A DNA stretch of 64,000 nt from Octopus vulgaris (taxonomy: Eukaryota). This document shows positions 4,916-56,252 of the stretch, piece after piece. The stretch's first letter is position 1, and each line of letters begins with the position of its first letter. The translations under genes and the position numbers were made by a program. Below the pieces are notes generated by a model. It saw only the letters and a program-made list of their open reading frames with translations. It was not told the DNA's origin and ran no database searches. The stretch covers positions 111,352,001 to 111,416,000 of the forward strand of contig OX597820.1 in assembly GCA_951406725.2 (NCBI GenBank). Direction: 5' to 3'.

Positions 4916-5022
4916 CTGAAATTTTAGAATTATCTGGAAATGCTGCTCGTGACAATAAGAAAATCCGTATAGTGCCACGCCATATCTTATTGGCCATTGC
5001 TAATGATGAAGAACTTCACCTT
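4916..5022 (+). CDS. macroH2A: macroH2A coding exon, H2A histone fold core (first coding exon is upstream of the window)
   Basis: ccattacAG acceptor and GTGAGT donor; 107 nt, phase 1 to 0. Translates (A)[35 protein letters not shown], the H2A/macroH2A fold motif. Not in the ORF track. Confidence 0.95.
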
Positions 5023-8758: not shown

Positions 8759-9049
8759 TTACTTAAACATGTCACCATTCCTGCTGGTGGGGTACTGCCA
8801 AAGATCCACCCTGAATTGCTCAGCCAGCAGAAGAGAAGAGGAGGCAAGGCAATACAGCAAGGATCTACATCCACTGTGAGTGGTGCAAGTACCTCCAGAT
8901 CTGGAGCACAACCACCAACAACAAAAAAAGCCAAGTTGACCAATGCACAGAATAGCCATCCAGATACAACAACTGCTGCCAGAAAACCTGCTGCTGTTCC
9001 GGCAAATAAGGTTACTAAGACTGTTGATAGCAAACCAAAAGGTGTCAAA
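8759..9049 (+). CDS. macroH2A: macroH2A coding exon: H2A docking domain plus basic linker
   Basis: ttccacAG acceptor and GTAAGT donor; 291 nt, phase 0 to 0. LLKHVTIPAGGVLPKIHPELLSQQKRRGGK...KPKGVK (inside ORF 8642..9067). Confidence 0.95.
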
Positions 9050-10179: not shown

Positions 10180-10281
10180 GCTCGAATATTAAAAGATGCT
10201 GAAAATGTAAACATGGCTGCTGCAGAGAATCTGGCTGGATTTTCAGTTTTATCTGAGAAGAAACTATTCCTAGGACAGAAG
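10180..10281 (+). CDS. macroH2A: macroH2A coding exon: linker end and macrodomain start
   Basis: ttatttcAG acceptor and GTGAGT donor; 102 nt, phase 0 to 0. ARILKDAENVNMAAAENLAGFSVLSEKKLFLGQK resembles vertebrate GFTVLSTKSLFLGQK. Confidence 0.93.
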
Positions 10282-10879: not shown

Positions 10880-11107
10880 ATCCACCCAACAAATTCCACG
10901 TATTATATGGGTGGTGAAGTGGATAAGTACTGATCTATAGCTTAAGAATAACAACAATAGCACCATAACATAAACAACAATAAAAATATGACTGGAAGAG
11001 CAAAACAGGGGTGAGTGACATGGTAGGACTGTCAGTTCAGTTCATATCTTGGGGATATTATTGGAGTGCTTTTGTGTGCTCTATTGAAATGACAGCATCA
11101 TTATGAT
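10880..11107 (+). pseudogene. Partial duplicate (pseudo-exon) of macroH2A exon 12338-12428 plus its downstream intron
   Basis: 228-bp direct repeat of 12386-12613 with 3 mismatches. The donor GTAAGT reads ATAAGT at 10923, and the acceptor and 5' half of the exon are absent. Confidence 0.9.
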
Positions 11108-12337: not shown

Positions 12338-12428
12338 ATGACAGTATTGCAAGGAGACATAACCAAAATCAATGCTGATGCCATCATCCACCCAACAAAT
12401 TCCACGTATTATATGGGTGGTGAAGTGG
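12338..12428 (+). CDS. macroH2A: macroH2A macrodomain exon of the macroH2A1.1 (ADP-ribose-binding) type
   Basis: ttcccAG acceptor and GTAAGT donor; 91 nt, phase 0 to 1. MTVLQGDITKINADAIIHPTNSTYYMGGEV(G) carries the GDIT and GGEVG motifs. Confidence 0.95.
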
Positions 12429-13726
12429 GTAAGTACTGATCTATAGCTTAAGAATAACAACAATAGCACCATAACATAAACAACAATAAAAATATGACTG
12501 GAAGAGCAAAACAGGGGTGAGTGACATGGTAGGACTGTCAGTTCAGTTCATATCTTGGGGATATTATTGGAGTGCTTTCATGTGCTCTATTGAAATGACA
12601 GCATCATTATGATTACATCATTATCATCATCATCATTATTATCACCGTCATCCTTTCCATTGTCATCTTCATCATCATCATAATTATCATTGTCATAATT
12701 TTAACAGCCACTTTTCCATGCTTCCACGGTGAGCGGAATTATCGGCAGTTGTTGTTTAGCTTCAAGTCAGCCTTGGACTAGTGAGCCTATGACGAAAGTT
12801 TTCTTCTCGCCTGGGACGCATTACAATATTATAAGTTAACTCAACTACTTAAGTGGTACATAATTTCATTGAGCCGCCTGGAAGTTCGAAAGTCAAAATT
12901 GATCTCAACAGTTTCAACTCAAAGTATAGAAGGGCATAACTACCAAAAGGCATTTTGTCTCCTGCTATTACAATTTGGCCAGTTACAGCCAAGACCATCA
13001 CGTCATTTTCAAAATCTAGCATATTTAGGAGTACGTGCGTGCTTTCATTATAAAAAAATAAATAAATATTTCGCTACTATTTCTAGCAAAGCCAACACTT
13101 GGTAATTCTTCCCCTGAACTTTCAATGGACGAGAGCTGGAGATTGCTGATGTAAGGGGAGTAACTATTAAATCTAACAGCAGGAGTTAATTCTCTTGAAT
13201 ATAAGTCTTGCATCATTGTGGGTGCTGTACGTGGTAACTTATTTTTCTCAATTTTTGGCACATGACTAGCAATTTTATGAGGAGTGGGTTAATCGATTAC
13301 ACCGACTCCAGGATTTATCTGGTACTATATTTTATTGAGCCCGAACAGATGATATACAAAGTTAATTTCGCCAGGGTTTGAATTCTCAATCTAAAGTGCT
13401 GGAAGAAAAGTCACAAAGATTTTGCTCAACACACTAATGATACTGCCAGCTCACAGCCTTACAATAATAATAATAGTAATAAGCTAAATGCATGTTTTGA
13501 TATCAGTTTGTTCTAGAAGGATCTTTACGTACAGACATGATGGTATATTAAAACTAAACATATATGCACATTCACAATATTTGGGACTTGTTCAATATAC
13601 AGAATTGTTAGTTTATTGCATGTAGAAACACCTGTGGTGTGTTTAATATATTGACACTTAATGATGCATTTATTACTTAAAGACACTTAATGGTCTGTAG
13701 AATGTATATAATCACTATGATGTCTT

Positions 13727-14255: not shown

Positions 14256-14342
14256 GATCAGCCCTTGAAAAAGCAGGTGGTAAGGATTTCACCGAAGAAG
14301 TAAAGGAGCTGGCAGCAAAAGGGACCTTAACGATATCTGCTG
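14256..14342 (+). CDS. macroH2A: macroH2A macrodomain exon
   Basis: ttatttttAG acceptor and GTAACT donor; 87 nt, phase 1 to 1. (G)SALEKAGGKDFTEEVKELAAKGTLTISA. Confidence 0.92.
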
Positions 14343-21535: not shown

Positions 21536-21557
21536 CTCTCTAGCTCTCTATTATTAG

Positions 21558-23080
<1,523 letters not shown>

Positions 23081-23292: not shown

Positions 23293-23470
23293 TTGCAATG
23301 TCTCGCGGCTGGAATCTGCCTGCCAAGTCTGTCATCCACCTGAACAGTCCATCATGGGGTTGCCACAATGCCCAGAAGCTTCTCGAGAAGTCCGTGCAAA
23401 ATATATTTGCCACAGCCGATAAGAATCACATGCGCTCCTTGGCCATACCACTTCTTGCCGGCACAGTGAA
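23293..23470 (+). CDS. macroH2A: macroH2A alternative penultimate exon 'a', putatively mutually exclusive, with divergent ligand-binding loop
   Basis: ttattgcAG acceptor and GTAAGT donor; 178 nt, phase 1 to 2, no stops. (V)AMSRGWNLPAKSVIHLNSPSWGCHNAQKLLEKSVQNIFATADKNHMRSLAIPLLAGTV(N) aligns with exon 41691-41865 (about 21/59 identical residues by hand). Confidence 0.8.
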
Positions 23471-31611: not shown

Positions 31612-31843
31612 GAAGCCATTTAAAAACACACAAAAACCATTTGAGTCACTTCAGCATTTAAATTTAATTTGTCAAAGTATTTTCGTCGCTTTGAAATCGC
31701 AACTTTTCCACTGACAAAATTCCATGTAGCACAGAATTTTGTCAGTCAACAGGTTACGGCTTCAAAGCAATGAAAATTCTTTGACAAATTAAATTTAAAT
31801 GCTGAAGTGAATCAAACGGTTTTTGTGTGTTTTTAAATGGCTT
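31612..31843. repeat. About 230-bp palindromic (foldback/MITE-like) element
   Basis: AAGCCATTTAAAAACACACAAAAACC... pairs with ...GGTTTTTGTGTGTTTTTAAATGGCTT around a centre near 31728. Confidence 0.88.
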
Positions 31844-41690: not shown

Positions 41691-41865
41691 CAACATTGTC
41701 TGATGGTTGTAATCTTCCTGCAAAGTTTGTCATTCACTGCCACGGTCCCACATGGTCGACCAATAATAGTAAAGATTTACTAACAAAGACCATAAAAAAT
41801 TGTCTGTCTCTTGCTGAAAGGGAGAATCTTAAAAGTGTTGCCTTTCCTTCGGTAGGGAGTGGACG
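41691..41865 (+). CDS. macroH2A: macroH2A penultimate exon 'b', canonical, with GSG phosphate-binding loop
   Basis: ctttcacAG acceptor and GTAAGT donor; 175 nt, phase 1 to 2. (A)TLSDGCNLPAKFVIHCHGPTWSTNNSKDLLTKTIKNCLSLAERENLKSVAFPSVGSG(R). Confidence 0.96.
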
Positions 41866-44012: not shown

Positions 44013-44204
<192 letters not shown>

Positions 44205-51675: not shown

Positions 51676-52486
51676 GCAATTCTTAATCTTTGTTTGATCA
51701 AATGTTTTTGCCATTTTGTTGTAACAGTAGTCACTTACCATCTTTCTTCTACCTTAAAATATTCATTAGTTTTGTATGTATTTAAGAATAAAATTATAAA
51801 TGATTTTAAATTTTTAAAAAAGTGCAACAAAATGTGTTTTAGTAATTTTTTTTAAGAAATACTTTTAAGAAATATTAGTAACTTTTTTTAAAGAAATACC
51901 AACTTGTTTCTTTCTTTTTAAAGTTTAATATTGGTTGATATTTTTTGAATAGAGCATTTTGTTGAATTCTTTATTTATTTTTCAAGAAAAAATGTCTTCC
52001 TTTCTAAGCATTAAATTTTCATCAAGACAAAGCAAGTACCAGTACCATCATTAGCCCATCATCATGTGGTTTACATCCACATGCCACGGTGATTTAATGG
52101 ATTTAATGGGGGAAAGGCTGCCAAATATTTAGTTTATTAGATAAAGAAATGCAATTTCATATCTTTTAATTCATTTAATTTTTTTAATTTGATTAAATAC
52201 ATTCAAAAAATAAGGCAACAATATTATTCATTTTAGAAGGGAAATTGAGATTATATGCAATAAATTGAGGGTCACTAATAATATTCCATTTCTCATTATT
52301 TTTAACTATGCAAGTGTAATGACCACTACTGACTTGATTCAATGTATGCATTATGCCAGCTTTTGATTTAAAGTTAGTGCCAAAAATATTTTGCTTTTTG
52401 GTATTAAAATATGTGATTTCTGCATTAATTCTGAAAATAATATTATTGTTGTGTTGGCAGTCGGTGTTGTGGGATGTGATGAGCTA

Positions 52487-52709
52487 TGTGGTGTTATTGG
52501 AGAGGATGACAGATGAGGCAGGCGGAAGTAGGGCTTGCAGGGGCTGGTGGAAGACTGCAGGGTGCATGCGTCACAGGAAGCAGAAGAGGTCAAGCAGGTC
52601 ACGTGTGATCATTGACGAAGGGACAGTTCGAGCATAGACGAGGAAGCGACAGGACGTGTCAAATTCGTAAGCTTCTCCATCTGTTGTCCTCTTCATCCAT
52701 CACACTACA
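52487..52709 (+). repeat. 5' LTR (223 bp; lacks about 49 bp present in the 3' LTR)
   Basis: TGTGGTGT...ACACTACA; direct repeat of 56319-56590. Confidence 0.88.
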
Positions 52710-52760
52710 AGTTATTTCGGCTCATAAAAAAAAAAAAAAAACGAACGATGAGCGAACGAA

Positions 52761-53393
52761 ATGATCAAACCGTTTTGCGGCGACACAGATGTAGTCGCTT
52801 GGTTGAAGAAGGTGAAGTTGGTGGCGAAGCTCCACGGTATAAGCGACCTAGCGAGTTTCATACCGCTGTACTTGGATGGTCTGGCATTGGCGCTGTATCT
52901 AGAGATGGAGGAGACGAACCAACTCAGCGCGGAGAAAGTAGAAATCCGGTTGATGGAGGCTTTTGCGGAGGGGATGTTCGAGGCATACACTCGCCTGGAG
53001 AAAACGTTGGTGTTCGTGACTGGCTTTACTGACAACATGTCGGTTGAGTTACAGCAGCTTCCGAACGTTCATTCAATGGCGATGGCAGACATCGTATCTT
53101 GGGCACACGTACTAGTTTCGTGCAGCAGAACGACATCGTTAGCAGTGACTGCAACAACGAAAAGTGGCCGAGCTAGGAGCAGCGGATAGGGGTCGAAGAA
53201 AGAACGTGTGCGACCGTTCAAAGGACAGTGTCTCCGGTGCCAGGGTCCGCACACGGTGCGTGACTGCGAGTCACCCAAGCCTGGGGTCATTTGCTACCGG
53301 TGTCGAGAAACGGGGCATATAGCCAGCGAATGTCTGAGGGGAAACAGACTGAGGGAGACTACTGCAACGGTAGTTGTCCCTTTGGATCAATAG
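52761..53393 (+). pseudogene. gag of the LTR element (in-frame TAG at 53187-53189)
   Basis: ORFs 52761..53189 and 53208..53393 share a frame; knuckles CLRCQGPHTVRDC and CYRCRETGHIASEC. Confidence 0.8.
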
Positions 53394-56252
53394 AGGCGCG
53401 TTTATTGTCACTACCTGTGGTCGACATTCTGGTGGAGGGGAAGATGTCGCGAGCCCTTGTGGACACAGGCTGTACGACAACCCTGATGACTCCAGAAGTG
53501 GTAGAGACGTGGAGAAAGCAGTGTAAGAGCAGTCAACGGAAGAGAAGTACACTGTGAAGGCATTACAGATGCGCGGATTGTAGTGCAGGGAATAAGGCTG
53601 ACACTGCGAGCAATTGTGGTTGGCCACTTGGTGGACGAGATTGACGTGGTGATAGGGATGGATGCAATCACCCGTTTGGGAGGTGTCACCATTAACGAGG
53701 CCGGTGTAATGTTCGGGTTTGCGGGGAAACCGTGTATGGCAAGACTGCATTGGTGACAACCATGAAGAAAAGCATGCTGCACACACCATTGAAGACCAGG
53801 ATTTTCATGCTGTCTTCGATGGCAAGAGGTGGACAGTGGAGTGGCACTGGAAGGGAGAGCCCCCGACGTTAAAGAATAAAGTGGGCTGCTATCAGCATAC
53901 TCTAAAAGGAGAGGCCAGAAGTGAGTTTGAGGGGGAGCGGTGGATTAAGGAGGACATATTGATCCCTTGGGAAGAAGTAGAGAGTGGATTCCTGCCACTG
54001 ATGGCAGTGGTACAGCCCACAAAGCATAAGGTCAGGTCAGTGCTTGACTTCCGAGAGCTGAATGATCACGTATCATGTCATACAAGCAGTGAGGGCACAG
54101 ATGTCTGCGGAGACAACTTGCGAGAGTGTAGGTAGATGACAGGGGCCTCCACGATCGTTGATTTGAAGTTGGCATACCTACAGGTGCATGTGGCTGAGAA
54201 ACTGTGGAAGTATCAGCTTTTCAGGTATAAGGGCCGGACGTACTGTCTGACCAGGTTGGGGTTCGGGCTGAATTCAGCGCCAAAGATTATGGCAACAATT
54301 CTCAAGGTCATCCTGGGAAAGGTGGACAGAGTAAAAAAGGCCACCAATTCGTACATTGATGATATTCTTGTGGATGAAACCATAATGCCAGCAATGGAGG
54401 TCATAGGCCACCGGAAGAGTTTTGGACTGATCGCCAAGCCACCAGAGGCAATGGAGGGAGGTGCTGCACTGGGCCTCAAGCTATGGAGAGACAAGGCTGG
54501 CGCGTTGGTGTTCCGGCTAGGGAATGAGATCCCTGAACTGGGCGCCAACATGAGTAGATGGGAACTGTTCTCTATGTGTGGGAAGCTGGTGGGACACTAT
54601 CCGATTGCAGGATGGCTCCGGACAGCATGTAGCTTCATCAAGAGACAAGCCGAAGGAGTGAAGTGGAATGATAGAGTGGGGGAGAAGACGACCGACATGA
54701 TACAGGAAGTCTTGGTCAGAGTAGGAGCAGAGGACCCAGTGAGGGGCAGTTGGTATGTTCCCAAATCAAAGAGCGGGATTGTATGGTGTGACGCCAGTAG
54801 CATCGCAATAGGGGTTGTCTTGGAAGTGGGAGGCATCATAGTGGAAGATGCAGCCTGGCTCAGGAAGATGGATGACTGTAATCATATCAATGTGGCGGAG
54901 TTGGATGCCATGTTGAAGGGGGTGAATCTAGCCTTGAAGTGGGGGTTGCACACCATAGAAATCAGGACTGATTCGGCCACTGTACTTGGTTGGGTGACAG
55001 CAGTCATCACCAATGAGCGGAGGGTGTGGACCAAAGGGGCTGCAGAGATGCTGGTAAAGCATCGATTAGGGATACTGCGTGAACTAGCCACTGAGTTCAA
55101 TCTGAAGCTGAGTGTGATCTTTGTGCCTTCCGAGAACAGGCGGACGTCCTGACCAGGGTAAAGCGAGCCTGGTTGCAGGTGCCAGAGGATGCGAAGCAGG
55201 CTGTAGCTGCAGTATGCCATCTGAGTGACTCGGAGTTGCAGAGATTGCATACCATGCATCACATGGGTGTGGACAGGACATTGTTCCTAGCCAGAAAAGT
55301 TGACTCCGATGTAACAAGACAAAGCGTGCAGAGAGTGGTTAGCAGTTGTGACAGGTGCCAGTCCATCGACCCTGCTCCGGGCGTACATGAGGCAGGAAGT
55401 ATTCCAGTGGACCACAACTGGAAATGACTGGCAGTGGACATAACACATTACTGGCAGGGGACATACCTCTCAATGGTTGACTACAGACTGGGGCGGTTGG
55501 CCATATGGAGGGAGATGAAGACGGGGACCACAGAGGAAATTGTGAAAGTATTGAATGAGACATTCCTGGAACGAGGCCTCGTGGATGAACTGCTTCTGGA
55601 TAATGGCACTGCATGTCGCTCGGAGGTGCTGAAAGAAATGCTAGATGGGTGGAAGGTCAACCGCTTCTTCAGGGCGGCATACCAGCCAAGTGGAAATGGG
55701 GTGGTGGAAAGGCATCATTGTACCATCAATACCATGGCAGAGAGGGGTCACATTTCACCAATCGAGGCTGTATTTTGATACAATATGTCACCCAGATCAG
55801 GACAGGCTGAGGAGTCGGTGCCACACAGGGCAATATTCAGGTATGAGTGGAGGCATCTGTGTACTGCATCAATACAACCTGGGACAGAGGAAGAGCACGC
55901 CTTCGTGCAGGTCGGGGAAGAAGTTTGGGTAAAACCCCCAAACGCACGGTGTACATCACGATGGGGAAAGGGAACAATAACCTCTATAAATTCGAAGAAC
56001 AACATCTCTGTCGATGGTATGCCACACCACGTTTTGGATATACGGAAGATTGTCCATGCCTCAGAGGATGGAACCAGCAGCAGTGGGCAAGAAGATAAAA
56101 ACAACAACAGTAGGCAAGAAGATGAAGACAACATCAGTAGACAGGATGATGAAGCCAGCAGCAACATGCCAGGAACCAGTCCTAGGGTCGCATTGCGACC
56201 ACAGAGGGAACGGCACCCTCCTCCCTGGTTGGCTGATTATGAAACCAGTTAA
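53345..56252 (+). pseudogene. Disrupted pol (protease, RT, RNase H, integrase) of the LTR element
   Basis: ORF pieces 53291..53557, 53719..54135, 54136..55152, 55173..55427, 55434..55778 and 55785..56252 carry the catalytic motifs. Confidence 0.88.

Follow-up and report, generated by a model that had tools for sequence, protein, structure and literature searches.

The macroH2A gene of Octopus vulgaris carries two versions of its penultimate coding exon, 7a and 7b, which are probably a mutually exclusive pair descended from a duplication older than the divergence of molluscs, brachiopods, nemerteans and annelids, with the 7a version remodelled in Octopus. The exon anatomy, the reading frames, the fact that public gene models include each of the two exons and, outside cephalopods, the age of the split between the two exon types (A and B) are read directly from the data. 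The A/B exon pair is real, old and apparently undescribed, and predates four invertebrate phyla.

Two penultimate exons in one macroH2A gene

The window, that is, the whole 64-kb stretch of DNA analysed, carries coding exons 2-8 of one macroH2A gene on its forward strand, and coding exon 1 (G000:C7:111344173-111344349) lies about 7.7 kb 5' of it. Exon 2 (4916-5022) encodes histone fold, exon 3 (8759-9049) the end of the histone fold and the basic linker, and exon 4 (10180-10281) the end of the linker and the start of the macrodomain, all three being joined-exon matches to the protein model P0001. Exon 5 (12338-12428) corresponds to the exon that alternates between vertebrate 1.1 and 1.2, and exon 6 (14256-14342), with a phase-1 donor GTAACT, is the common upstream exon for the two alternatives, the diverged type-A exon 7a (23293-23470, 178 nt) and the type-B exon 7b (41691-41865, 175 nt). 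The last coding exon (44045-44204) has a phase-2 acceptor and ends with a TAG stop at 44202-44204. Joined with exon 7a, the exons of the window give the last 337 residues of P0001, which contains PF00125, PF16211 and PF01661, corresponding to an H2A histone fold, a basic linker and, at the C-terminus, a macrodomain, all on a single chain. Candidate-limited genome searches found no second macroH2A locus, and within their reach the locus is this octopus's single macroH2A gene. Among 35 genome matches to a macroH2A macrodomain piece (28-40% identity), 30 lie on contig C1, near 5-9 Mb and 206-216 Mb, which suggests that other macrodomain genes, perhaps PARP14-like ones, have expanded greatly.

A prior sequence-only reading had described 7a as an intact, stop-free exon of 178 nt that is flanked by AG and GTAAGT and passes from phase 1 to phase 2. 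This is what we find: ...TTTATTGCAG lies directly 5' and GTAAGT directly 3' of 23293-23470, and the exon is open in frame from the exon ending at 14342. Exon 7b, with AG and GTAAGT as well, has identical phases (1 in, 2 out). The frame check also agrees with that reading in that either exon alone restores the frame from 14342 to 44045, whereas both together lead to a TGA at 41701-41703 and skipping both causes a frameshift. The two exons are paralogous, with 21 of 59 residues identical (36%, matching the earlier estimate) and 38 residues different, and exon 7a has retained CpG unlike its surroundings, as had been noted (observed/expected 0.60, compared with 0.54 in exon 7b and 0.23 over 14343-41690). 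A whole-genome search with exon 7a returned only itself and exon 7b (E 8.6e-8; 15 candidates scored); with exon 7b as the sole other genome match, borrowing of exon 7a from another macrodomain gene is ruled out. Together, tandem homologous exons with equal phases, each of which alone restores a frame that both or neither would break, are the anatomy expected of a mutually exclusive pair.

How exclusivity would be enforced can be narrowed down. A distance of 18.2 kb separates exon 7a from exon 7b, and the two are of the GT-AG type, which excludes steric and mixed-spliceosome devices, and an inverted-repeat search for docking/selector pairing gave 891 pairs, swamped by repeats, and singled out no RNA pairing. 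An early stop more than 50-55 nt before the last exon junction generally makes a transcript a substrate for decay; by this rule the premature TGA of 7a-7b splicing, 162 nt 5' of the last exon junction, would mark these transcripts for decay. In the case of double skipping, the stop would fall in the last exon and escape the rule, so that something must favour inclusion of one exon. Exclusivity would presumably arise through splice-site competition, backed by nonsense-mediated decay of transcripts carrying both exons. The choice appears leaky, since products with both exons are found among the models of O. sinensis (X4, P0007, which terminates at the predicted TGA) and Pomacea (P0152, with an early stop, judged by its shifted-frame tail NHLSGS).

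Exon 7a is used in seven of the nine Octopus models retrieved, including all four from O. bimaculoides, and its presence in public gene models means that it is not "hidden", as had been claimed. Five of these seven continue in frame to the last exon, one continues into exon 7b out of frame and one into another ending. Exon 7b is joined in frame to the last exon in two of the nine, both from O. sinensis. RefSeq models are usually built on RNA alignments. P0001 is both the O. vulgaris GenBank model and O. sinensis RefSeq X3; the GenBank model may derive from this same assembly and does not count as independent evidence. Judging by the public gene models, each exon is probably used singly in Octopus.

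Several other features of the locus were observed. A 228-nt stretch at 10880-11107, 1.5 kb upstream of the real exon 5, is a 99% identical copy of 12386-12613 and comprises the 3' half of exon 5, its donor and the following intron; it arose either by partial duplication, recently, or through an error of assembly, and it concerns the exon that vertebrates duplicated. Because it consists of the 3' half and donor only, without an acceptor, a vertebrate-like duplicate of exon 5 is ruled out. In several O. sinensis and O. bimaculoides models the histone fold has four extra residues, GTYV, at the exon 1/2 junction (acceptor 4916), probably originating from an alternative splice site. In O. bimaculoides model X3 an alternative ending matches the window segment 36285-36341 at 13 of 19 residues; the segment has no AG at the corresponding place and is probably a cryptic terminal exon. 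The window also contains a hairpin at 31613-31843 (110-nt arms, 89% complementary, 11-nt loop), a 244-nt tandem duplicate at 21549-22051, upstream of exon 7a, and a GC-rich stretch (0.46-0.51) at 52001-56000, downstream of the macroH2A gene.

Age and spread of the two exon types

The same pair is found in Mollusca, Brachiopoda, Nemertea and Annelida, so that the proposal that this lineage evolved the duplication is unsupported, and the pair probably did not originate in octopuses. Homolog searches (best 120 of 265 and best 120 of 342, plus 20 cluster look-ups) yielded, among the matches listed, same-species isoform pairs that differ solely in the 7a/7b exon from 13 named non-cephalopod species: the nemerteans Lineus and Tubulanus, the brachiopod Lingula, the chiton Liolophura, three Haliotis, and the molluscs Pomacea, Gigantopelta, Biomphalaria glabrata, Littorina, Pecten and Mya. 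In all, 22 pairs were compared, two more being from O. sinensis and the other seven being cross-record pairs or controls. Furthermore, four of four read-through models (Tegillarca, Magallana, Biomphalaria pfeifferi and the annelid Paralvinella) contain both copies, A then B, which is the order in the octopus window. Type A follows the pattern VNSP..WG...N[IV]...PS[IV][SG]SG-N and type B the pattern CNGP..W...NC...PS[IVL]GSG-R. The lophotrochozoan isoform pairs (Lingula XP_013383980/81, Lineus XP_064624762/70, Liolophura, Haliotis, Pecten, Littorina) concern the same exon, with the same types in the same order as in Octopus, and are very probably the same system, although they come from automatic gene models and not from a described system. 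Among the members listed, only type A is seen in the Patella cluster, and a single type in each of the clusters from scorpion, tick, termite, urchin, sea cucumber and coral. In the centipede Strigamia, one model (P0038) has a tandem, partly duplicated exon copy, ...GTGN followed by ...GSGR.

Types A and B are separated by a single branch, with support of 95/98 under LG+G4 and 93/99 under a mixture model (59 columns, 32 rows); without cephalopods (28 rows) this branch has 91/99, the bootstrap being not fully settled. With cephalopods excluded, the AU test rejects separate duplications in molluscs (0.008), nemerteans (0.010), Lingula (0.006) and the annelid (0.022). Rejection of phylum-specific duplications dates the event to before the split of molluscs, brachiopods, nemerteans and annelids, which were already separate by the Cambrian; the earlier suggestion of an old duplication is thereby upheld, with an A/B branch that spans phyla and AU p values of 0.006-0.022. 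Leave-one-species-out scoring sorted 28 of 28 exons correctly to A or B. By the same score amphioxus, vertebrates, horseshoe crabs and termites are B-like, and hemichordate, echinoderm, scorpion, spider and coral rows are A-like, a scatter that, if the pair were of bilaterian age, would imply reciprocal losses. A metagenome scan for the genomic loci of relatives returned only three loci at 30-33% identity and was uninformative.

Octopus exon 7b is a plain type B, with -43.4 bits and the A state at none of seven diagnostic columns. Exon 7a scores on the A side (+11.3 bits, compared with 17-58 for held-out type-A exons) and has the A state at five of the seven columns (V18, S20, G26, I/V42, I/L56, S60, N64). 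It is grouped with type A in both ML trees (LG+G4 and mixture), and it was probably inherited from the old type A. It is the weakest member of that type, with 29 of 59 residues identical to the A consensus and 26 of 59 to the B consensus, and its loop is remodelled, whereas type A in other lophotrochozoans has 42-53 of 59 and keeps the loop. Its end branch is 0.77-1.27 long against a median of about 0.15, that is, five to eight times the median.

This long branch would also be expected if type A had been lost in coleoids and exon 7a were a new, octopod-specific and fast-diverged duplicate of exon 7b, which we consider unlikely. A tree that forces the two Octopus exons together is not rejected (p-AU 0.070 and, with the mixture model, 0.112; 0.050 with the other cephalopod-like B rows), and 13 of 13 further cephalopod-like rows carry type B only. 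The A-like states of exon 7a are common outgroup states too, so that reversion to them is cheap, and a simulated diverging B copy reached its A-likeness with P of 0.03-0.36 (0.009-0.81 in conditioned nulls). Such an origin, however, requires the loss of type A and, on top of it, a renewed duplication of this exon, and it has to contend with the grouping of exon 7a with type A in both trees, with its position upstream of exon 7b, like that of A in the four tandem models, with the complete lack of B-majority residues at columns 18, 20, 26, 42, 56, 60 and 64, and with the split Asn codon, typical of type A, in which it ends. Inheritance from the old type A, the reading that we prefer, would entail fast evolution of the Octopus exon, with one residue gained and the in-register glycine of the loop lost.

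Having the longest branch of the set, exon 7a might instead be an ancient exon on which selection is now relaxed in Octopus, or it might chiefly serve as a poison exon, reducing macroH2A levels via the transcripts with both exons seen as early-stop models in O. sinensis and Pomacea. This is improbable: O. bimaculoides and O. sinensis/vulgaris share the frame, the two splice sites and 59 of 60 residues, the retrieved O. bimaculoides models all include the exon, and a poison exon has no need of a fold-compatible reading frame.

The phosphate loop and ADP-ribose binding

The motifs QGDI, GGEVG and VLYD, which we take to be the adenine-side, binding-type motifs of the macrodomain pocket, lie in shared exons and are identical in isoforms a and b. 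The swapped exon encodes a strand, a helix and the phosphate-holding loop; the role of this loop, and G224 as a pocket residue, are given in the available part of PMC8232725.

Both A and B have an intact loop in ordinary pairs, and the constant difference is its last residue, which is R in 14 of 14 type-B exons and N in 10 of 14 type-A exons (T, S or K in the rest). Outside Octopus, type A retains PS[IV][SG]SG, and its sixth loop residue is still glycine. A fall in affinity was reportedly traced by Guberovic in 2021 to this same N/R position and a Q/E position. That affinity fell in evolution is stated in PMC12551714. The macroH2A of Capsaspora (PDB 7NY6; HVHSP...FPSIGSGN) is type-A-like, human 1.1 has FPSIGSGR, and Capsaspora has Q where the octopus isoforms have E in GGEVG; 7NY7 is, per its structure title, Capsaspora macroH2A solved with ADP-ribose. 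The intact loop of type A elsewhere, together with its likeness to the ADP-ribose-binding Capsaspora protein, argues for the old pair being a tuner rather than an on/off switch, and most likely it tunes ADP-ribose affinity or specificity. Tuning of the pocket would come from a change in the residue that follows the glycine loop, which is N in type A and in Capsaspora and R in type B and in human 1.1, and the strand and helix before the loop would be swapped along with it.

Octopus exon 7a departs from this pattern. Its loop codons (23448-23470) encode P-L-L-A-G-T-V-(N), whereas exon 7b has the canonical PSVGSGR (41846-41865); as the sequence-only reading had stated, the 7a loop is one residue longer and lacks GSG. 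PLLAGTVN is found in five Octopus rows and does not match PS[IV][SG]SG. In a loop survey of 250 homolog rows over 290 residues, 11 without the last-exon motif were dropped, and in the remaining 239, which include many similar fish sequences, the sixth loop position (five after the loop proline) is Gly in 231. The eight exceptions are the five Octopus 7a rows, with Thr (or Val, depending on the alignment) at this position and the conserved Ser after Pro changed to Leu, and three tick-type rows. In tick macroH2A (P0114, P0183, P0082) the loop, PALGTHS, represents an independent loss of the glycine. In the coral Porites lutea, isoforms X1 and X2 (P0158/P0155) differ by one residue in the phosphate loop, possibly a third way to vary this loop by splicing.

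Vertebrate macroH2A2 (6FY5, 2XD7) also has an altered phosphate loop (FPPFPSGR), and it does not bind ADP-ribose according to the available part of PMC8232725. Unlike isoform a, macroH2A2 is the product of a separate gene, has prolines in the loop and a changed G224, and keeps the sixth-position glycine. The remodelled loop, with the same loop altered in this non-binder, makes weak or lost binding by isoform a a fair inference, and given the rest we think it somewhat more likely than not that Octopus isoform a would be a weak binder or non-binder of ADP-ribose, functionally like vertebrate 1.2 or macroH2A2.

We give less credence, though still some, to isoform a binding ADP-ribose, with the switch altering only affinity, ligand preference or a protein-contact surface (e.g., for PARP1), so that Octopus would behave as other lophotrochozoans do. 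The adenine-side motifs are the same in both isoforms, type A elsewhere has an intact loop, and most of the 38 differences between 7a and 7b lie outside it. Small residues are still present in the 7a loop, as is a glycine (G-T-V-N), shifted by one place from the usual register, and a loop longer by one residue is also found in eight coral-type rows. The macro fold is kept in the AlphaFold model of isoform a (built on 102 sequences; Z 31.4 and rmsd 1.0 Å over 185 residues to 2fxk, macroH2A1.1), although such an alignment-based model is biased to the family fold and silent on binding, and a single-sequence prediction gave a pLDDT of 40. The loop is the least certain part of the modelled domain, with block means of 86 and 74 compared with 89-95 nearby. 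Against continued binding stand the near-invariant glycine, replaced by Thr or Val, the Ser-to-Leu change, and the alteration of the same loop in the non-binding macroH2A2. In the reading that we favour, isoform a would have a normal fold and a preserved adenine site but would bind the diphosphate poorly. The ligand on/off switch put forward earlier fits the Octopus exon 7a loop only and does not extend to type A elsewhere, with its intact loop and glycine; the Octopus-specific loop change may make the exon pair an on/off switch.

Relation to vertebrate macroH2A splicing

As described in the available part of PMC8232725, vertebrate MACROH2A1 (H2AFY) resembles the octopus pair in that one gene, by either/or splicing of a tandem duplicate exon, alters the pocket in its 1.1 and 1.2 forms. 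The vertebrate gene, however, swaps an earlier exon (adenine side and G224), whereas Octopus swaps the penultimate exon (phosphate loop), two exons later. Indeed, PDB 1zr3 and 1zr5 (1.1/1.2) differ in the stretch that matches the window exon 12338-12428, in agreement with the earlier statement that the vertebrate switch uses a different exon. In Octopus this exon has one intact copy, of the 1.1 (binding) type by its sequence, with QGDI and GGEVG. Judged by the exons involved, the vertebrate and the octopus/lophotrochozoan duplications are independent.

No description of the invertebrate exon pair was found in the full-text literature, where "macroH2A + mutually exclusive + mollusc" returned nothing; specialist papers or supplements may mention invertebrate isoforms. 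The pair is undescribed in the available parts of PMC12153100, PMC12210499, PMC5550673, PMC12551714, PMC8232725, PMC7050489, PMC6189284 and bioRxiv 2021.11.30.470311. PMC12551714, from 2025, sets the alternatively spliced exon of macroH2A within the evolution of vertebrates, and the main text of PMC12210499, on mollusc macroH2A expression, contains none of "isoform", "splic" and "alternative". Isoform-blind expression studies of mollusc macroH2A average two proteins.

An older, separate exon pair in four invertebrate phyla changes the vertebrate-centred picture of macroH2A splicing. The A/B pairs are natural matched macrodomains, 13-38 residues apart, for asking what purpose ligand binding by a histone serves; they toggle the position that distinguishes Capsaspora (N) from human (R), and Octopus exon 7a is a natural loop-broken variant. 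A broader picture, which we hold only tentatively, is that the macroH2A pocket came under splicing control on two separate occasions and through different exons. The invertebrate version would be the older one, with an N/R toggle at the lid of the pocket that was retained from before the lophotrochozoan phyla diverged, perhaps from early bilaterians onward. In Octopus, exon A, of the high-affinity type, would then have become an exon that truly switches binding off, possibly the main form there, and this would have re-created the logic of vertebrate 1.1/1.2 for the control of nuclear NAD+ and PARP1.
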